From Minisyncoccota bacterium (GTDB lineage Bacteria > Patescibacteriota > Minisyncoccia > Phycocordibacterales > CAINVO01): a DNA stretch of 36,504 nt. The position numbers and the translations under genes are program-made. The stretch is from contig JAQTMP010000002.1 in NCBI GenBank assembly GCA_028714275.1, positions 1-36,504 on the forward strand, given 5' to 3'. The notes under the pieces are model-generated. The model searched no databases. It was not told where the DNA came from and saw only the letters and a list, made by a program, of their open reading frames with translations. Positions 7,837 through 32,626 of the stretch are shown here, in pieces; position 1 is the first letter of the stretch, and each line of letters begins with the position of its first letter.

Positions 7837-8502
7837 ATGCTAATCATTGCTGGTCTCGGAAATCCAGGAGAAGAATACCTAAATACGCGACACAATGTCG
7901 GCCGGATGGTCGCACAGGCTTTTGCCAAAAGAAATGATTTTCCGGATTTTATTTTTAGTAAAAAATACAATGCCTTGATTTCGGAACGAGTAATGACAGT
8001 CGTGTTTGAAACAAATATGCTCAAAAAAGGCAAACCCACTGGCGCTCATAAACTCTCAAAAAAAACTAAAGAAAAGGTGATGGTAATCCTGCCAGAAACC
8101 TTCATGAATAAAAGCGGCAGCGCCCTCAAGCCTCTAGTGTCAAATGCTAAGAAAGCTGAGCAGCTCATTGTCATCCATGATGATTTAGACTTGGCCTTTG
8201 GATCATCAAAATTGGCTTTCAATCGAGGGTCAGGAGGTCACCGTGGGGTGGAGTCTGTGATCCGCGCCCTCAAGACGGAGGCTTTTACACGTTTAAAGAT
8301 AGGGATTTCTCCCTCGACTCCTAGTGGCAAAATCAAAAAGCCCTCAAATGACAAAATTTTAGATTTTATTATTGGAAAATTTAAACCTGCTGAGCTAGAA
8401 CAGATGAAGAAAATTTCAAAAGAATCTGCGGACTATGTGAAAATAATTCTAGAAGAGGGTAGGTCTCATGCTGCAGGGAGTATAAATAACAAAAAGAAGT
8501 AG
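7837..8502 (+). CDS. pth: peptidyl-tRNA hydrolase
   Basis: MLIIAGLGNPGEEYLNTRHNVG N-terminus, FMNKSG, and HDDLDL. The ATG at 7837 is preceded by TACAAT (7823-7828) and GGAG. The track start at 7810 is a GTG. Confidence 0.9.
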   Translation: MLIIAGLGNPGEEYLNTRHNVGRMVAQAFAKRNDFPDFIFSKKYNALISERVMTVVFETNMLKKGKPTGAHKLSKKTKEKVMVILPETFMNKSGSALKPLVSNAKKAEQLIVIHDDLDLAFGSSKLAFNRGSGGHRGVESVIRALKTEAFTRLKIGISPSTPSGKIKKPSNDKILDFIIGKFKPAELEQMKKISKESADYVKIILEEGRSHAAGSINNKKK

Positions 8503-8563
8503 GACCTTTCTCATTAAAGCGCTCGAAGACTCGCTAACCCGTTCGAAAGGTCCTACTTTTTTT
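8501..8563 (+). terminator. intrinsic terminator after pth
   Basis: AGGACCTTTC (8501-8510) pairs with GAAAGGTCCT (8545-8554) and is followed by ACTTTTTTTAT. Confidence 0.7.
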
Positions 8564-8580
8564 ATAATTGGTGGAAAGGT

Positions 8581-8633
8581 AAAAAAAAGACCGGAGCTCC
8601 CACTGGTGTGTGGGGCTCCGGCTTTGATTTTTT
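8581..8633. terminator. bidirectional intrinsic terminator
   Basis: An A8 run, then the GC-rich hairpin CCGGAGC(UCCCAC)...(GUGGGG)GCTCCGG (8591-8621), then CTTTGATTTTTT. Confidence 0.7.
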
Positions 8634-8680
8634 CCGTCAGCCAGCTTTTTGGCTGGCCAGACCAGAAGAGTACCGTGCTT

Positions 8681-9055
8681 TTAGCAGGCGGCCGCCGCGA
8701 TGGCTGTAGTCAGCCGACCGCGACCGGATTCCCGCGCGGCCACTCTCAACCGCAGAAGGTCCTCAGCCTTTTGGAAAAAGGTATGGACCGCTTCGCCGTT
8801 TGAAGGTTGGTCGAAGTGGAACACTTCGAGCTTTGTCGTCCGAAAGGCCTTGCAGGCATCCGGCGGCACAACCTCTGTATCCAAAACCACCATGTTGGGA
8901 TGGTCGGAGTTGAAGTAGAGGCTGGTCGCACACTGATTCTGGACATCCAGGTCAACGATCAGGCTTTTCAGGCCTTGATGATCGCTGATATGTGCTGTGC
9001 TGAGGACTGCGGCATTGAGGACGATGACGGTGAACAACCGATTATGAATTGTCAT
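8681..9055 (-). CDS. hypothetical small secreted protein (124 aa)
   Basis: The N-terminus MTIHNRLFTVIVLNAAVLSTAHI looks like a signal peptide. It lies in a GC-rich patch where several frames are open, so this frame was chosen only for the signal peptide and the downstream terminator. There is no SD. Confidence 0.4.
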   Translation of the reverse strand: MTIHNRLFTVIVLNAAVLSTAHISDHQGLKSLIVDLDVQNQCATSLYFNSDHPNMVVLDTEVVPPDACKAFRTTKLEVFHFDQPSNGEAVHTFFQKAEDLLRLRVAARESGRGRLTTAIAAAAC

Positions 9056-9113
9056 TTTTCTAAAAAGTCTGTAGCAAATAGTAAGGCATTATTGGCTTTG
9101 TGTCAATGGTAAT

Positions 9114-9228
9114 AACAAAATCCTCCACCTACTTGACGGAAACTTGCGCAGGCGCGTCGGCGCCGAGCAGAGCAGAAAAGTCAGCAGACTTTTACGCGTG
9201 TTCCGGAAAGTAGGTGGAGGATTTTGTT
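9114..9228 (+). repeat. structured palindromic element, copy A
   Basis: A 21-bp perfect outer stem (9114-9134 / 9208-9228) encloses GGCGC-GTCG-GCGCC, GAGCAGAGCAG and AAAAGTC-AGCA-GACTTTT. It is homologous to 16485-16641 and 16665-16781. Confidence 0.75.
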
Positions 9229-9233
9229 TACTA

Positions 9234-10340
9234 CTATTTCACAAAGCCTAGTGCCATCTTCTGTTCTTTTGGATCAAAAAGATTGATTTTGAAACTATAG
9301 CTTTTACCGAGTTCGATGGTTTCTCGAAGCTTGGCTTCAGTGCCAAATTCTGATACATGTACAAGTCCAGCCACACCTTCTTCGATACTAGCCAGAGCTC
9401 CGTGTTTGTTGAACTTAATCACTACACCGGTGACGACATCATCTTTTTTATATTTCTTACTTGCAGCCTTCCAAGGGTTTTCTTTGAGGGCTTTGATGGA
9501 AAGGGAAATTTTGCCATCTTTAATTTCGATAATTTTTACTTTTACCTTATCTCCGACTTTAAAGAGGGCGCGAGGATCTTCGACGAGCGCCCAGTCAATC
9601 TCTGAAATATGGACTAGGCCTTCGAGACCTTCCTCAAGTTTTACAAAGACTCCGAAATCTACCATGCCAGTGACATTTCCTTCGACTTCATCGCCGACAG
9701 CATATTTGCCCACGATTTTTTCCTTGTCTTTCTGCTCAGGATTTTTTTCTGAGAAAATAAGCTTGCCTTCTTTTGGAGAAGCGGAAATAATGACTACGGA
9801 AATACGCTTGCCGAGAAGTTTTTTGAGCTCGTCCAGGATTTTATCTTTATCGCCGTCAAGGACTCGAGGGTAGTGGTCGCTCTTGAGCTGAGAAGCAGGC
9901 AAAAATCCCTGGATACCTTGCCATGAGAGGATAAGACCACCCTTGTTGGCCTCGACGACGGGAAGATCGAAAGCGGTTTTCAAACGGATAGCTTCTTCGG
10001 CTTCACTCCAGATGAGGGCTTGTTTAGCTTCTTTTAGAGAGAGCTCAATATAGCCTTCGGGGTGATCATAGCCAACAACCTTGGCGGCGATGCTATCTCC
10101 TATATTTACTTTTTTAATAATATCGCGGGCGTTGATATATTCACGGCCGTAAATAATACCGGTACCGTATGGGTGCAAGTCCACAAACACACCTTTTTTG
10201 TCGATGGCGATGACAGGACCTTCTACAATGTCAGCCACGCTTGGAGGAGTGACAGTGTCGTTGAGCATCTTGCCCATGGGACTGTCCTTTTTACTGTCCT
10301 TTATGTCCTTAATGGTTTCTTTATCTGCTGTTTTAATCAT
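9234..10340 (-). CDS. rpsA: 30S ribosomal protein S1 (four S1/OB repeats)
   Basis: Repeated S1-domain blocks (GDxVxGxV...FGxFVxL...GLxHxSE), for example VEGNVTGMVDFGVFVKLEEGLEGLVHISEI and VTGVVIKFNKHGALASIEEGVAGLVHVSEF. Confidence 0.9.
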   Translation of the reverse strand: MIKTADKETIKDIKDSKKDSPMGKMLNDTVTPPSVADIVEGPVIAIDKKGVFVDLHPYGTGIIYGREYINARDIIKKVNIGDSIAAKVVGYDHPEGYIELSLKEAKQALIWSEAEEAIRLKTAFDLPVVEANKGGLILSWQGIQGFLPASQLKSDHYPRVLDGDKDKILDELKKLLGKRISVVIISASPKEGKLIFSEKNPEQKDKEKIVGKYAVGDEVEGNVTGMVDFGVFVKLEEGLEGLVHISEIDWALVEDPRALFKVGDKVKVKIIEIKDGKISLSIKALKENPWKAASKKYKKDDVVTGVVIKFNKHGALASIEEGVAGLVHVSEFGTEAKLRETIELGKSYSFKINLFDPKEQKMALGFVK

Positions 10341-10454: not shown

Positions 10455-10497
10455 ATTAAAATACAAACCCCCGACCAGCAAACCTGGTCGGGGGGGG
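10455..10497 (-). terminator. intrinsic terminator of the glycosylase-like gene
   Basis: An 11-bp stem, CCCCCGACCAG (10468-10478) with CTGGTCGGGGG (10484-10494). On the minus strand it is followed by TTTGTATTTTAAT. Confidence 0.75.
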
Positions 10498-10504
10498 ATT
10501 CAAC

Positions 10505-11845
10505 TCAAATCAGCATCACCTCGGTCTCGCTGCCCACACCGTTTGTTCCATCCTTTCCAATAAACTGAAGCGCCTGCTCTTTGGCGGCCTGTTTGTCCCA
10601 TTCACTGGTCGGGACTTTGATAGGCACCTCCGATAGATTGAAAAGAAGAACATCCGTTTCCGGCGTAGATCTATAGCGGAGCCGAAGCTGGCCTCCGAGA
10701 TAGTATGGAGCCGACGGCACCGCAAACTTGCAACTGTCCGCCACGGGACACATCCGACAGGAGCGGTCGTAAGCTGCAAGCTGAGCTTCGCCCCAGGTCG
10801 GCGCCACGTGGAGGACACGCGACTTCCTTCCAGGACTTTTGGTGGCATTTTCAAACAACGCCAATCCATCTTCCGGTCTGGGTTTGTGCCCCAATTGCTT
10901 CTTCCGATTGGTCCGGAGCTTTTGCTGCTCCTTTCTTTTCTCGGATTTGTCCGGAGTCTGACTTTCGTTGTCCGGATGCCACGAACACATGGCTCTTGAG
11001 AAAAGCCAAAGGGCATCACAGAGCTCGACCATGTCGATCTTGCTTTGCTCGCAGTAGCTTTGAGCGGCTTCTCTCGCAGTGCTGAGCAGCTGGGGAGAAA
11101 ACACATTGTCACCTACCTGCATGTTCCAGTTTGGCTTGATGATCTCGTTTGAGAGCAACATCCTGAGGACATGAAAGTCCACAGGCACCGGAATGGTGTG
11201 TCGATCGACCAGGTTTGTCTCAGCCAAGAAGTAAGTAATCATGCTGACCATCTTGTGCTGAAAACCCAGAAAGCCGTTTGGCGAACTGAGTTTAAACTTG
11301 CCGCTGTTGGCGATGCGATCAACTAGGTCATCAAATGAATTGACCTGATCAAACAAGCGTCGTGGATCAGATTGCCAAAACTTGTGAAGTTTGATGGCAT
11401 TTAAAATCCAAAAACGGGCGTTTTCCTCGTGGCTGAAGCCTAATCCGTGCGCCTGGAGCTCACTTCTGAGCTCCTGATAAACTTTCTCCTTGGTCAACAG
11501 GGCAATCAGCTTTGGGCCGTAGGGAATCTCCCCATTTTTGAGGGCCAGATTCCGTATTTTTTTGACCAGGTAGCCCGGAACAAACAAATACGGCTTCCTT
11601 TCATGGATGAGGGTGAGCTGTTGCACGGCGACCTTGCTATCAATGCCTCCGCGCATGTAGTAGCAGACGGTCCACAAGAAAACGGCATGTTCAGAGCCGC
11701 CAAAAATCAAGTTGTCGGGCATGTTTTGCCTGATCTGGGGCGGAGTGCTGTGATCGAAAGGGTGTTGCTTGACGCGAAGCCTAGCAATCAACCTATCAAA
11801 AACCGCAAAAGCCCGTTTCCAATCGATAACGTAAGAATATTGCAT
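10505..11845 (-). CDS. HhH-GPD / endonuclease III-like [4Fe-4S] DNA glycosylase homolog with a 75-aa insertion in the Fe-S cluster loop
   Basis: By-eye alignment to E. coli Nth: GFQHKMVSMITYFL matches GVGRKTANVVLNTAF (Lys kept), VPVDFHVLRML matches IAVDTHIFRVC (Asp kept), and ALWLFSRAMC matches HHWLILHGRYTC. Downstream comes C-X75-C-X2-C-X5-C (CRMCPVADSC). The preferred start is the ATG at 11845, with AGGAGG 6 nt upstream; the track start at 11902 is a TTG. Confidence 0.6.
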   Translation of the reverse strand: MQYSYVIDWKRAFAVFDRLIARLRVKQHPFDHSTPPQIRQNMPDNLIFGGSEHAVFLWTVCYYMRGGIDSKVAVQQLTLIHERKPYLFVPGYLVKKIRNLALKNGEIPYGPKLIALLTKEKVYQELRSELQAHGLGFSHEENARFWILNAIKLHKFWQSDPRRLFDQVNSFDDLVDRIANSGKFKLSSPNGFLGFQHKMVSMITYFLAETNLVDRHTIPVPVDFHVLRMLLSNEIIKPNWNMQVGDNVFSPQLLSTAREAAQSYCEQSKIDMVELCDALWLFSRAMCSWHPDNESQTPDKSEKRKEQQKLRTNRKKQLGHKPRPEDGLALFENATKSPGRKSRVLHVAPTWGEAQLAAYDRSCRMCPVADSCKFAVPSAPYYLGGQLRLRYRSTPETDVLLFNLSEVPIKVPTSEWDKQAAKEQALQFIGKDGTNGVGSETEVMLI

Positions 11846-12076
11846 CTGACGCCTCCTTTCTGTTGGATGTTGTATGTCATGGTGCTTATTGTTCTGAGGC
11901 AACGATACGCGTTTAAATTTTGTTTGTAAAGAGCCTCTTCCTCTTTGTCAGTTTTTATTTTTTAATATGTTGTCCACAGGCTTTTACACTGTTTTTAAAA
12001 ATTATTTTTGACAAATGAAGGTACAATAAAATCAGAATAAAAAATAGCTCAAAACCCAACTGGAAAGGAGGGTAAA

Positions 12077-12919
12077 GTGAAAAGATTAACAATCAGAAAT
12101 ACGGGCAGATCTTTATCTGGCAGGAATTTTTATGCCGCGGCCAATCAAGTGATTGAAGTGGTCGCCAGCTTCGGTGAAGAGCTGTGTGCCAAGATCACCG
12201 GCGGAGAAGTTGTCTCGACAGACCAGGACTATGCATCCTTTGCGGATGTGTTTGTCGAGGATCATAGCCTCGCAGTCCAAGTCAAGATGTGCAACCATCG
12301 TCATGCGCATCGGCCGACAATCTCCCAGGTCGTCACTCTTCACGAGCAGGTAAAGGAAGTCAGCTTTTTGGTAAACGTTATGCACGGCGTTTACGCCCTC
12401 GTTTTTTATGGGGGAGTTGGTCTAGGGGGTATCAATCGGGGCAAGTCCAAGATTCTGAGTAGGAAGCTTGGGCGTGAAGGTAAAAAAGTTGTAATTGGTC
12501 GGGAGCTTCAGTACATATATTTCATCGACGTCGAGTTGATGAACTACCTTGCCACAGAAAAGGCTTACGAACATCTTCGCAAGTCTGGCAAAGTCAAAGT
12601 GTGTGCGGAACGAAAGCTCTACTCCAAGATTGACAAGACCGTCCTGTACTTGAATCGGACTTTCCTGCAAGGTTTTGTGGGACAGCCAGTCCAACAGACT
12701 TACAGGGATATGCTCGATGCAAGTTTGGGAAGCGGTGACTGGAGGATCAGAAAGGAGAAAATTAATCTCCGGTTCACCACCTCAGTGGGTCTTGTCCGAA
12801 AGGCTCTGCCCATCATCATGGTGGGTTCAAGGGAGGTCGTCAAAAGCCTCCGAAAAATGGTCAGAAAAGCTGACGGCATCAAAATCCCGTTGGCTAATGG
12901 CAACCAGCCACATTTGTAA
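12077..12919 (+). CDS. hypothetical protein, possible PD-(D/E)xK-fold nuclease (D...QxK variant)
   Basis: GTG start with AGGAGG (12066-12071) 5 nt upstream. The N-terminal region contains IEVV (E27) ... FADVFVEDHSLAVQVK (D57-X10-Q68-V-K70) on predicted beta strands. This is a motif-level guess only. Confidence 0.35.
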   Translation: MKRLTIRNTGRSLSGRNFYAAANQVIEVVASFGEELCAKITGGEVVSTDQDYASFADVFVEDHSLAVQVKMCNHRHAHRPTISQVVTLHEQVKEVSFLVNVMHGVYALVFYGGVGLGGINRGKSKILSRKLGREGKKVVIGRELQYIYFIDVELMNYLATEKAYEHLRKSGKVKVCAERKLYSKIDKTVLYLNRTFLQGFVGQPVQQTYRDMLDASLGSGDWRIRKEKINLRFTTSVGLVRKALPIIMVGSREVVKSLRKMVRKADGIKIPLANGNQPHL

Positions 12920-12928
12920 ATCAAAGGT

Positions 12929-12980
12929 CCGAGTAGCTCATGTCACCACACATGCGCTGCTCGGCCTTTTTCTTTTCTCA
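12929..12980 (+). terminator. intrinsic terminator after the nuclease-like gene
   Basis: CCGAGTAGC (12929-12937) pairs with GCTGCTCGG (12956-12964, one G-U) and is followed by CCTTTTTCTTTTCTC. Confidence 0.65.
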
Positions 12981-13029
12981 TCCTTTTTCTCTTTTCTTGG
13001 CCAGAAGTCTATGCTACAATATCCCCACT

Positions 13030-13698
13030 ATGGTCATCACTTATCAAGGTTTAGAGTGCTTCAAGCTCCAATTTGGAGACCTCACGGTGGTGACCAATCC
13101 ACCGGCTAGAGACTCCGTTTTTAAAACCTCCAAGTTCGGGGCTGATGTGGTTCTGCAAACGGTCCTCGACGAAGATATGGCTGGAGGCGAGGACTATTCC
13201 TATGGAGACAAAAAGCCCTTTATTATCAATGGACCTGGTGAATATGAAACTCGGGGCGTTTTTATTCGAGGTTTTCCTTCAGTGTCAAAATACCATTCTG
13301 CTAACGATAAAACAGATAGTGACGAAGGTGAATCAATCAACACTATATATACTTTCCAAATAGACGGAATCAATCTCTGTTTTCTGGGCGCCCTCGGGTC
13401 CACTGATCTGAAGCCAGAGACAGTGGAGGGCATCGATACGGTGGATATTCTTTTTGTGCCAATAGGCGGAGAGGGGGTGCTGACAGCCGCAGAAGCTTAC
13501 AAACTAGGCGTCAAGCTTGAAGCTAAACTCATTATTCCTATGCATTACGAAGGGACCAATGGAAAAATAAAAGAAGAGGCGCTTAAAACTTTTTTGAAGG
13601 AAGCAGGGGAATCAGCCGCTCCGACGGACAAACTCACTATCAAGAAAAAAGATTTGGAAGGTAAAGAAGGTGACGTGGTAGTGCTTTCAAAGGTATAA
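13030..13698 (+). CDS. MBL-fold metal-dependent hydrolase (UPF0173-like)
   Basis: MVITYQGLECFKLQF...VVTNPP, DILFVPIGGEGVLTAAEA and IIPMHY are typical of this small beta-lactamase-fold family. The track N-terminus (12940-13029) runs through the preceding terminator, so the ATG at 13030 is preferred. Confidence 0.7.
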   Translation: MVITYQGLECFKLQFGDLTVVTNPPARDSVFKTSKFGADVVLQTVLDEDMAGGEDYSYGDKKPFIINGPGEYETRGVFIRGFPSVSKYHSANDKTDSDEGESINTIYTFQIDGINLCFLGALGSTDLKPETVEGIDTVDILFVPIGGEGVLTAAEAYKLGVKLEAKLIIPMHYEGTNGKIKEEALKTFLKEAGESAAPTDKLTIKKKDLEGKEGDVVVLSKV

Positions 13699-20807: not shown

Positions 20808-21212
20808 TTACTCTGGCCTGACGACATAGTTGACGGTTGCACTTCCTGGGCCAGTGGATTTGAACTCCACGGTCTTCAGGTCAGTGCTCAGATCAATATG
20901 CCCCACCACTGGCTGATCAGCTCCGCCGTTTTTTCGCAGCAGCAACTTGGCTGACTCCTCGGTGTCGAAGTCAAACCGATAGCCTGGCGGCACTCGGATT
21001 TCTGGACCATATTTTCCCTCGGGTGCGGTGTAGGTTTGCATTACCGCTGTAGGTGCTGCGACTGACGACAGGCCAGCATTTTTGGTGGCCGCGTGCGGCC
21101 TATGAGCTGCCGACTCCGCGCACCCTTTCAGGAACACGAAGAAGAAAATGATACCAAGGATGATCACGAGGACCGTTCCTACGGTACGGATTGTTTTTTG
21201 CAAGCCGCTCAT
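20808..21212 (-). CDS. hypothetical membrane-anchored (possibly lipo-) protein, 134 aa
   Basis: An N-terminal TM helix ends in FLKGC (weak lipobox) and is followed by a beta-rich soluble domain. Its ATG overlaps the stop of the upstream gene (ATGA, 21209-21212). Confidence 0.6.
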   Translation of the reverse strand: MSGLQKTIRTVGTVLVIILGIIFFFVFLKGCAESAAHRPHAATKNAGLSSVAAPTAVMQTYTAPEGKYGPEIRVPPGYRFDFDTEESAKLLLRKNGGADQPVVGHIDLSTDLKTVEFKSTGPGSATVNYVVRPE

Positions 21213-31288: not shown

Positions 31289-32626
31289 ATGAAAAAATTC
31301 TACAGTGTTTTGCGGGTAGCTGGTAATTCCAGAATGGGAGGCAATCCGGATACTGAAGCAGACAAAGCTTTTGATTTCCTCGGATTCAGCTCGGAGCAGC
31401 TCAACGGCCATGCTTACAAGGCCAGTCGTCCAAAGGTGGGTGAGCGGTTTGTAGTCGAAGCCAACATGAACACCAAGACTGCCGGCACCTTCGTCCTGTT
31501 TCGTTTTATGGATGAAAGGTGGGAGGAAATCCTTGGTGGACGCATCACCACGACCAAGCAGGACGATGCAGCCACCACCAACACGTTTTCGTGCATTGGG
31601 GGCCAGTTTTCTCGATTGACAATCATCACTCCAAACGAGCCGATCGCCACACATTTCCAAGATTTGCCGACCGGCACCTTGGTGTCAGCCGTCAACAAAG
31701 AGGAGGGTGTGATCACCCTCAATTCGCAGGGAGAAGAAGTGGTCGGGGAAGAAAAAGTGGTGTTTCTTGATGTCAGCGATATCCGGCGTTTTGAAGGTCA
31801 GCCAAGGATTTTTTTCAATTCAGAAAAACTCCGGGCGCTGGGTGACTCGATCAAGGGGATCGGTCAACTCAAGGCCATCAGTGTTTGGCGGCTGCCTGCC
31901 GATGAAATCGGTGAGGATGGCTGTCATTTTGAACTCGATGATGGAGAACGCCGGTGGCTGGTCCACCAGCATGTGGGATTGAAGAAAATCAAAGCCATCA
32001 TCAAGACAGGCAAAAGGAAAAATCTGCTCGAGCGCTTTACGCTCTCTTTCGTGGCCAACCTCCATGCGGAGCCGCACACCACGTACGAGATTGCCAAGGC
32101 TATCCTCTGGATTTATGAACAGGTGAAAGATCCGGCCGAAATTCACAGGAAAACTGGACTCAGCATTCCGCTGATCTACAGTTATTTGCGGCTGAAAAGT
32201 CTTTCTCCCGCTTTGCTGGAGCAGATGAGTCCCGAGGTGCCGGAGAACAATCGGCTTCGTCTTGAACATGCTAAAACGCTTGCCGGTATCAAGGATCTCG
32301 ACGAGCAACAGCGGATTTACGACGAGGCCTACGGTCATTCGGAGAAAGGGATCAAGACGGTCAGCCGGACGATCAAGGTCTTGGTGGCAAAATCAGAAGC
32401 CGAGCTCAACTTTGTGCCCAGAAAAAGAAGTCCTCGAAAGGCCGCCACCCGAGCGGTCCAAAACTTGCTCAATTCGCTGGTGGAGCTCGACACCAATGAA
32501 ACGGGGCTAAAGCACCACCTCCTCTTTACCACAGAAATGGGTCGGAGGGAGGTTGAAGAAGCTCTACAAAGGGCGGTGATAATTATCCCAAGGCTCCTCA
32601 AGGTGGCCAAAAACATGGCCTCCTAG
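31289..32626 (+). CDS. ParB/Srx-fold protein with HTH and an N-terminal extension of about 165 aa
   Basis: ParB N-domain boxes are EGQPRIFFNSEKLRALGDSIKGIGQLKAISVWRL and DDGERRWLVHQHVGLKKIKAII (GERR box). The HTH region is KTGLSIPLIYSYLRLKSLSPALLEQM. The N-terminal 165 aa are unassigned. Confidence 0.7.
   Translation: MKKFYSVLRVAGNSRMGGNPDTEADKAFDFLGFSSEQLNGHAYKASRPKVGERFVVEANMNTKTAGTFVLFRFMDERWEEILGGRITTTKQDDAATTNTFSCIGGQFSRLTIITPNEPIATHFQDLPTGTLVSAVNKEEGVITLNSQGEEVVGEEKVVFLDVSDIRRFEGQPRIFFNSEKLRALGDSIKGIGQLKAISVWRLPADEIGEDGCHFELDDGERRWLVHQHVGLKKIKAIIKTGKRKNLLERFTLSFVANLHAEPHTTYEIAKAILWIYEQVKDPAEIHRKTGLSIPLIYSYLRLKSLSPALLEQMSPEVPENNRLRLEHAKTLAGIKDLDEQQRIYDEAYGHSEKGIKTVSRTIKVLVAKSEAELNFVPRKRSPRKAATRAVQNLLNSLVELDTNETGLKHHLLFTTEMGRREVEEALQRAVIIIPRLLKVAKNMAS

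Follow-up and report, generated by a model that had tools for sequence, protein, structure and literature searches.

What two neighboring genes of a Patescibacteria chromosome do together, when one resembles a DNA glycosylase and the other a nuclease, is the question raised by the locus described here. The window, by which we mean the whole 36,504-nucleotide stretch analyzed (positions 1 to 36,504 of contig JAQTMP010000002.1), is a chromosome fragment from the Patescibacteria, or Candidate Phyla Radiation (CPR), and its nearest retrieved relative is a metagenome-assembled genome titled "Patescibacteria group bacterium" (locus L003/L007), with 84% identity in GyrA. A first-pass annotation, made from the letters of the sequence alone, had placed a divergent gene pair between rpsA (9234–10340, minus strand) and a metallo-beta-lactamase hydrolase (here the Lactamase_B_3 gene) and had suggested that the two genes might form a DNA-modification-sensing or defense module. 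The gene coordinates are upheld, and we refer to the two genes as A and B:

10505–11845, minus strand: gene A, 446 aa, ATG start; candidate DNA glycosylase/apurinic-apyrimidinic (AP) lyase of the helix-hairpin-helix (HhH)-GPD superfamily.
12077–12919, plus strand: gene B, 280 aa, GTG start; orphan family, candidate PD-(D/E)xK-like nuclease.

A 465-aa open reading frame (ORF) beginning with TTG was also considered as the start of gene A and was rejected, homolog N-termini giving it no support. Judged from sequence comparisons, the two genes appear to make up a self-contained module that is restricted to the Patescibacteria, and both protein families are undescribed.

Homology searches with A retrieved 84 clusters, all of them unnamed or "hypothetical," and those with a taxon label are Patescibacteria. 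A pattern scan of 185,579 species (one genome per species) returned 62 loci, of which every phylum-labeled one again falls within the Patescibacteria (Saccharibacteria, Parcubacteria/Paceibacteria lineages, Falkowbacteria, and Kazan), the others being titled merely "bacterium." Members of the family are 330–470 aa long and carry an N-terminal CYYMRGG motif and a C-terminal four-cysteine module. Across an alignment of 56 sequences, the HhH motif G-F-x-G-F-Q-x-K198-M-V-S-M is near-invariant and K198 invariant; this lysine matches the position of the lysine in the GVGRK of endonuclease III (EndoIII) and lies at the start of helix 197–209 of the AlphaFold2 (AF2) model. The same alignment shows a Gly/Pro loop, P219-x-P221-V-D223-F-H-V-x-R228, that is invariant or nearly so (D223 strictly), together with five invariant cysteines (C61, C287, C363, C366, and C372). 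The spacing C363-x2-C366-x5-C372 is that of the [4Fe-4S] cluster of EndoIII and MutY, whereas C287 is separated from C363 by 75 residues in the window protein and by about 35 in short homologs, compared with 6 in EndoIII/MutY. An enlarged loop rich in Lys and Arg, a variable insertion of 35–75 residues, lies ahead of the C-x2-C-x5-C motif.

The AF2 model of A (predicted local distance difference test score, pLDDT, 88.7; predicted template-modeling score, pTM, 0.87) was compared with the PDB by Foldseek. Structures of QNG1, Ogg2, OGG1, MutY, and AGOG fill the first 26 places, with probabilities of 0.92–1.0, E values from 9e-5 to 0.12, and modest target template-modeling (TM) scores of 0.4–0.68. 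The best match is QNG1 (7u07, E 9e-5, with QNG1 structures reaching 2e-3; TM about 0.5), and MjaOgg (3knt), TM1821 (3n0u, target TM 0.68), hOGG1, MutY, and Pa-AGOG follow. A family profile of A searched against the PDB reached Pa-AGOG at a marginal E of 0.005, with D223 aligned to D172 in the PVD motif of AGOG.

Curated family models place A in none of these groups. Pfam gave no PF00730 match and reached PF09171 (AGOG) only at E 0.22 (11 bits, where the cut-off is 26), although a precomputed PF09171 match exists for two A homologs; NCBIfam, PHROGs, PADLOC, and PDB sequences (phmmer) yielded nothing significant. Alignment with authentic E. coli Nth by hhalign gave a probability of only 10.8%, a result that, like others obtained with single-sequence templates, for which hhalign is weak, speaks for non-membership and is not proof of absence. 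On these grounds we rejected A as a housekeeping Nth/MutY ortholog, a grouping that would have spoken against the earlier proposal, and likewise, going by curated models, as a member of the Ogg2/AGOG family. The combined data strongly support A as a new, catalytically intact-looking family of the HhH-GPD superfamily. By sequence and predicted fold, it bears all the hallmarks of a bifunctional glycosylase/AP-lyase with an Fe-S-type module, its architecture joining an Ogg2/AGOG/QNG1-like core to an EndoIII-like cysteine module that would hold a putative cluster. The initial description of A as an EndoIII/HhH-GPD enzyme is therefore right as to superfamily and Fe-S type, while the closest relatives by fold are Ogg2, AGOG, and QNG1 rather than EndoIII. 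Within the library searched, no paper joins HhH-GPD proteins and Patescibacteria.

For B, six homologs were found in a 5.8-billion-protein index and 28 clusters among 1.84 billion representatives in an exhaustive hidden Markov model search. Invariant residues of this close family are E34, D57, Q68-V-K70, N73, H76, R79, and Q84. A second and far more divergent branch (c3; 13–17% identity), found by clustering the neighbors of A homologs, aligns along the full length of B and carries D...E-V/I-K-(G/M)-x-x-N. Over 31 sequences of the B superfamily the D and K reach 90% conservation or more; the distant branch has ExK, and one locus of the close branch (L031) has EVK, the window protein being a QxK variant. 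The motif is therefore best written D...(E/Q)xK, to which the long helix before it contributes an acid, and the D-x10-QxK arrangement noticed in the window at first reading proves to be conserved across the family. A third word-index search, with a profile of the 31 superfamily sequences, added two proteins and no Pfam-annotated relative.

In the AF2 model of B (pLDDT 78, pTM 0.81), helix 14–41 is followed by strands 58–60 and 65–73, helix 82–93, and strand 103–111, and a beta-rich C-terminal half follows this core. The predicted alpha-beta-beta-beta-alpha-beta order fits the canonical PD-(D/E)xK core, with a Glu in helix 1, the Asp at a strand start, and (Q/E)xK in the next strand, as are the catalytic residues of PD-(D/E)xK enzymes. 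From motif and model together we consider B to be probably a nuclease of the PD-(D/E)xK type.

Evidence that A and B belong together comes from their neighborhood. Of 24 informative loci with a B-superfamily gene, all 24 have an A gene directly beside it, and the pairing seen in the window thus recurs elsewhere. Neither outcome named beforehand as fatal to the idea of a joint system, a failure of the homologs to co-occur or a housekeeping A combined with a B that shows no nuclease fold, is what was found. These loci comprise a close branch (the window, L001, L003, L004, L005, L069, L070, L077, L030, L031, L074, L075, and L076) and a distant one (L009, equivalent to L078–81, L010, L011, L012, L014, L016, L019, L020, L022, L026, and L033); searching for loci with the close-family B alignment contributed four additional ones. 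The two genes occur in tandem as A>B, in tandem as B>A (L075, L026), divergently (the window, L030/31, L033), and convergently (L009, L011, L020). No A-B fusion was found among the 84 A and 28 B matches, the genes being separate at all 24 loci. The pairs reside in at least seven unrelated genomic contexts:

Context 1: pth/rpsA/gyrA.
Context 2: enolase/MFS/RF1.
Context 3: NUDIX/MGMT/DivIC.
Context 4: RecO/aminoacyl-tRNA synthetase (aaRS)/peptidase M16.
Context 5: SWIB/IGPS.
Context 6: nusG-rplK/DHFR-like.
Context 7: amine oxidase/AhpC.

Between the window and L003, A is inverted and rpsA relocated, and the adjacency of A and B is retained. The type of partner tracks the phylogeny of A, and about 25 A loci have solely miscellaneous housekeeping neighbors. 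A, which often occurs without B, is autonomous, and B is its obligate accessory. In one locus (L005 4584–5864) A is split into two ORFs of 147 and 277 aa beside an intact B, which reflects either a frameshift/pseudogene or an assembly error. NUDIX (MutT-like) genes adjoin or lie near A in L003 (5488–5901), in L005 (2773–3180 and 3267–3641), and in two solo-A loci, and an MGMT-type gene lies near A in L005; such neighbors are a weak hint of a guanine-damage context resembling the GO system.

A second kind of gene also adjoins A. In about 20 CPR loci, and in all orientations, the neighbor is a divergent ParB/Noc-like gene (family c1) of 400–470 aa with ParB_N and HTH_ParB domains that score below NCBIfam cut-offs (L013, L017, L021, L025, L027, L036, L043, L047, L050–L053, L055, L057, L062–L065, L067, and L068). 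The two partners can fill one slot: in the arrangement nusG-rplK / X / A / c13-c11-c17, X is B in L030 and L031 and the ParB-like gene in L051 and L053. The window has its own c1 member (31289–32626, plus strand), 19 kb away from A, and c1 may therefore be an ordinary chromosomal ParB/Noc-like gene; it may also be a functional partner of A.

Rates of evolution were compared between L030 and L031, two near-identical Saccharibacteria genomes. Flanking genes show a synonymous divergence (dS) of 0.15–0.6 and a nonsynonymous-to-synonymous ratio (dN/dS) of 0.01–0.09, against a dS of 0.53 and dN/dS of 0.16 for A and a dS of 1.14 and dN/dS of 0.185 for B, whose amino-acid identity is 68% compared with 99% for nusG and rplK. 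Selection is purifying on both genes, which argues that both are functional, and they evolve several times (2–10) faster than their flanks, B fastest. Directly downstream of B-A-c13 lies a tract (L030 6391–10065 versus L031 7881–10714), including a cytidylyltransferase-like gene, in which proteins are 38–49% identical and dS is saturated in genomes that are otherwise 87–97% identical in nucleotide sequence. This divergent tract adjoining the pair looks like an allelic replacement or a recombination hot spot.

The pair also carries its own expression signals, which in the window are the following:

11846–12076, no strand assigned: A/B divergent control region, 231 bp, AT-rich, GC 0.34 (0.338).
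11930–11902, minus strand: promoter-like site for A, within the divergent control region.
11852–11857, minus strand: Shine-Dalgarno (SD) sequence AGGAGG of A, 6 nt ahead of the ATG.
12066–12071, plus strand: SD sequence AGGAGG of B, 5 nt ahead of the GTG.
10468–10494, minus strand: intrinsic terminator of A, 11-bp stem with 9 GC, then a T-run; folding free energy (dG) −25.2 kcal/mol, z −4.65.
12923–12969, plus strand: intrinsic terminator of B, interrupted long hairpin; dG −28.3 kcal/mol, z −9.99.

Both the perfect SD sequences at 5–6 nt and a strong terminator for each gene had been described at the outset and are borne out. The T-rich tail of the B terminator runs to about position 12990, and a pattern scanner overlooked this terminator solely because its stem is interrupted. 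Beyond it lies the Lactamase_B_3 gene (12940–13698 in the window), which most likely begins, like its counterpart in L003, at 13030 (MVITYQG...) rather than with the first ATG (12940); this leaves the B terminator in a true intergenic region.

Among the 35 ORFs of the window, only about two others have a perfect SD sequence at a plausible start. These are 1302–1679 and 20808–21212 (both minus strand; 125 and 134 aa), which have an elevated G+C content at third codon positions (GC3; about 0.60) and no Pfam match. Over seven related loci (L001, L003, L004, L005, L069, L070, and L077), 7 of 14 A/B starts match at least five of the six SD positions, compared with 0 of 54 flanking genes, and the contrast is thus a property of the cassette beyond the window genome alone. 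A and B are SD-led exceptions among backbone genes that mostly do without such a site. A −10-like (TATAAT-like) box sits 3–14 nt ahead of the start in 8 of 29 window genes versus 4.6% of random positions, an arrangement that suggests widespread leaderless mRNAs among the backbone genes of these CPR genomes.

Base composition does not set the cassette apart. Overall G+C is 0.460 in the window, 0.511 in A, and 0.488 in B (gene mean 0.469, standard deviation 0.047), and GC3 is 0.607 in A and 0.566 in B (gene mean 0.498, standard deviation 0.084). The G+C of A and B thus exceeds the mean by only about one standard deviation and is level with that of dus (0.504), dnaX (0.513), and the ParB-like gene (0.516, GC3 0.608). 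A compositional island is ruled out by these values, and the claim of a clearly higher, foreign-looking G+C is withdrawn. A search for direct repeats or att-like sites bordering the cassette returned none.

On the far side of rpsA, positions 8503–9233 form a GC-rich segment (0.54) that no retrieved locus matches and that occupies the place of a NUDIX gene in the syntenic relative L003. It contains a 124-aa ORF (8681–9055, minus strand; GC3 0.66) without a Pfam match and is flanked by strong hairpins at 8500–8555 and 8569–8639; Rfam gave no match here. Directly downstream of rpsA, positions 9105–9235 (minus strand) can fold into a branched stem-loop of about 125 nt (dG −66.7 kcal/mol, z −10.6), closed by an 18-bp perfect inverted repeat (9117–9134 / 9208–9225); its size is far above that of an ordinary terminator, and it too has no Rfam match.

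How might the two proteins act together? Guided by the sequence motifs, the models, and analogy with known enzymes, we tentatively propose that the pair carries out base-excision-triggered DNA cleavage in restriction or defense, a reading whose chance we put somewhat short of even. A would flip out and excise a non-canonical base, most likely a guanine derivative, because its fold neighbors (Ogg, AGOG, QNG1, and MutY) handle modified purines or their partners. It would then nick the strand by beta-elimination, with K198 as the Schiff-base lysine acting together with D223, and the enlarged basic cluster loop would serve in DNA binding. B, as a metal nuclease of the PD-(D/E)xK type, would be recruited or licensed by A and would cut at the abasic site or nick, or close to it, so that base lesions become breaks that are hard to repair. 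The role would be modification-dependent restriction of incoming DNA, from phage or taken up, that carries modified purines; a methyltransferase would not be needed because only modified DNA would be attacked. An accessory module of the arms-race type fits the sparse and patchy distribution, the fast evolution, the shifts of context, and the private expression signals. A broader version, in which Patescibacteria possess a private modular base-excision restriction system with an active A and interchangeable partners (B or the ParB-like protein in the same syntenic slot), is conceivable and on present evidence rather doubtful.

A number of results weigh against restriction by the pair. PADLOC-DB 2.0 gave no match for A, B, three A homologs, three distant B relatives, or four ParB-like neighbors; PHROGs matched neither A nor B; and both are absent from plasmid and phage collections and from IMG/VR. 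No integrase, transposase, methyltransferase, or known defense gene was found beside the A/B loci, where the neighbors are pth, rpsA, gyrA, aaRS genes, enolase, nusG/rplK, redox enzymes, and the like. A is frequently found without B, autonomous in the manner of a repair enzyme, and part of its distribution looks vertically inherited, with synteny conserved in Saccharibacteria. As to B, Foldseek against the PDB brought up EcoRV repeatedly, at best at E 0.54 (rank 3) and TM 0.19–0.28, with no match significant, so that these recurrences are a hint only; against BFVD the best match was an uncharacterized haloviral protein (E 5e-3). Searches of B against Pfam, NCBIfam, PHROGs, PADLOC, and the PDB (phmmer and profiles) gave nothing significant. 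The hhalign value with E. coli Mrr, itself a QxK-type enzyme, was 0.2%, and the window protein has Gln in place of Glu at the metal-ligand position. The PD-(D/E)xK fold that the first-pass annotation had considered for B accordingly holds for the motif, is in keeping with the predicted core order, and finds no significant structural or profile match, and the defense function first suggested for the pair is retained here as a tentative proposal, since the defense and mobile-element searches returned nothing and the neighbors are housekeeping genes.

The alternative that survives best is a dedicated base-excision-repair (BER) module, in which A would be an Ogg/Nth-like glycosylase/lyase for oxidized or alkylated bases of the cell's own genome and B an AP endonuclease, or a nuclease for 3'-end cleaning or incision, replacing the Xth/Nfo that is missing or reduced in tiny CPR genomes. 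Four features are accounted for equally well by such a lineage-specific module: the housekeeping neighbors, the lack of any defense or mobile-element signal, the autonomy of an A that often stands alone, and the occasional NUDIX and MGMT genes described above. The catalytic Lys and Asp and the Fe-S cysteines of A are intact as in repair enzymes, its nearest folds include the 8-oxoguanine glycosylases Ogg2, AGOG, and hOGG1, and both genes are under purifying selection. However, the distribution is very sparse for core repair (62 species genomes for A, 28 clusters for B), both genes outpace their flanks 2- to 10-fold, one and the same syntenic slot can hold different partner genes, the cassette shifts among contexts that are unrelated, and BER glycosylases are not known to come with obligate nucleases of their own. 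With these points on the two sides, we regard a repair module as possible and fairly unlikely.

A further explanation concerns B alone, which could be a non-nuclease with a catalytically dead core. It would then serve A as a DNA-binding adaptor, a regulator, or an inhibitor, for instance by directing A to certain DNA or by restraining a glycosylase that might be genotoxic. In favor of such a role, most close homologs, the window protein included, have Gln instead of Glu or Asp at the second acidic position, no nuclease structure or family is matched significantly, and B is never found without A. Yet D57, K70, and the acid of helix alpha-1 are conserved among members only 13–17% identical, the canonical ExK is present in the distant branch and in L031, A often occurs alone and so needs no inhibitor, and the ParB-like gene that can replace B in its slot likewise encodes a DNA-acting protein; we hold a non-nuclease B to be improbable.

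More improbable still is that A is a nucleoside or nucleotide glycosylase for queuine-type salvage, akin to QNG1/DUF2419, with the adjacency of B unrelated to DNA cleavage. CPR bacteria rely on salvage, QNG1 is the best structural match of A, and its K199/D231 pair parallels K198/D223; nevertheless, its TM score is below the 0.68 (target TM) reached by an Ogg2 protein, Fe-S cysteines of the EndoIII type, like a cluster loop that is basic, typify DNA-binding glycosylases, and both the obligate partner (DNA-nuclease-like) and the alternative neighbor (a ParB-like DNA-binding protein) point to DNA. Coincidental adjacency is effectively refuted by an association that holds in every informative locus, in all orientations and at least seven contexts, and through local rearrangement.

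Whichever reading applies, the locus defines two protein families absent from curated libraries: A, which by prediction bridges Ogg2/AGOG-like cores and an EndoIII-like cluster, and B, a partner found only beside A. The CPR/Patescibacteria account for a large part of bacterial diversity. CRISPR-Cas is rare in their tiny genomes, and their means of defense and repair are poorly understood (PMC4742961, PMC6509639). If A/B is a restriction module, glycosylase-based immunity, recognized only in 2024–2025, would extend to the CPR, and the pair would be an example of an active glycosylase coupling to a nuclease in trans; if it is a repair module, it would be a lineage-specific BER solution in minimal genomes. 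In either case the A/B enzymes might yield new base-specific tools for work on DNA.

Comparison with known systems places A between several families. It resembles EndoIII and MutY (PF00730) in its HhH-GPD core, in its catalytic Lys and Asp, and in the C-x2-C-x5-C spacing of its C-terminal cysteines, and it differs from them in that a basic insertion sets the first cysteine 35–75 residues upstream instead of 6. With Ogg2/AGOG (MjaOgg 3KNT, TM1821 3N0U, and Pa-AGOG 1XQO) it shares the core fold, the HhH lysine, and a PVD-type aspartate, although those proteins are about 200–250 aa long and have no Fe-S cluster, in contrast to the 330–470 aa and four-cysteine module of A. In QNG1/DUF2419 (7U07), K199 and D231 are topologically equivalent to K198 and D223, whereas QNG1 acts on a free nucleoside or nucleotide, lacks an Fe-S cluster, and is only about 11% identical to A.

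Among enzymes that attack foreign DNA, the R.PabI family (PMC10273834) and Brig1 (PMC11078745) use base excision as the primary attack, as is proposed for A. Their folds are unrelated to it, R.PabI being a HALFPIPE protein and Brig1 distinct from EndoIII/Ogg (per PMC12191111), and R.PabI attacks unmethylated sites and is accompanied by a methyltransferase. The restriction exerted by R.PabI, a glycosylase, is enhanced by separate AP endonucleases (PMC10273834), a precedent that makes sense of a glycosylase teamed with a nuclease. Closer to A are Dag1 and Dag2, divergent HhH glycosylases that destroy 7-deazaguanine phage DNA, Dag1 being bifunctional with a Lys/Asp pair and an aromatic residue (bioRxiv 10.1101/2025.10.29.685425). 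Both Dag and A are divergent within the HhH superfamily, lie near aGOG/Ogg in fold space, and are overlooked by sequence annotation; Dag is a single-gene system linked to integrons and mobile elements, with no Fe-S cluster or dedicated partner reported, whereas A has a subfamily with an obligate partner, no mobile-element context, and an Fe-S-type module.

The nearest parallel to the pair as a whole is offered by the END nucleases, in which an Ogg/EndoIII-like HhH domain is coupled to a PLD or NucS-like PD-DExK domain and which restrict phages with hypermodified DNA; END^Mag, which joins a NucS-like PD-DExK to an Ogg-like HhH domain in one protein, restricts phages whose G is modified (PMC12191111). 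The earlier statement that no comparable named system is known is thus outdated by the END and Dag enzymes, both described in 2025, and the END, Dag, and R.PabI precedents make a defense role of A/B plausible. END and A/B alike combine an Ogg/EndoIII-type HhH protein with a nuclease of the PD-(D/E)xK type (a candidate one in the case of B), dispense with a methyltransferase, and follow a logic of sensor plus cleavage, and the HhH part of END resembles archaeal and Thermotoga Ogg, the same structures (3KNT and 3N0U) being top fold matches of A. END genes lie in defense islands of Proteobacteria, in contrast to the housekeeping surroundings of A/B in Patescibacteria; A, unlike END, also occurs alone; and B has no detectable similarity to NucS or PLD, END^Mag having been compared by its description. 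In END one polypeptide carries both parts, and its HhH domain, no longer catalytic, acts as a sensor only, whereas A and B are separate genes and A keeps the invariant K198 and D223 together with the Fe-S cysteine set. By analogy, then, A/B would be a split and still enzymatically active counterpart of END nucleases and of Dag glycosylases, while failing both of the features that define END, and it may, as a suggestion we advance with some reserve, represent a new, two-gene form of HhH-glycosylase-based DNA surveillance coupled to a candidate nuclease.

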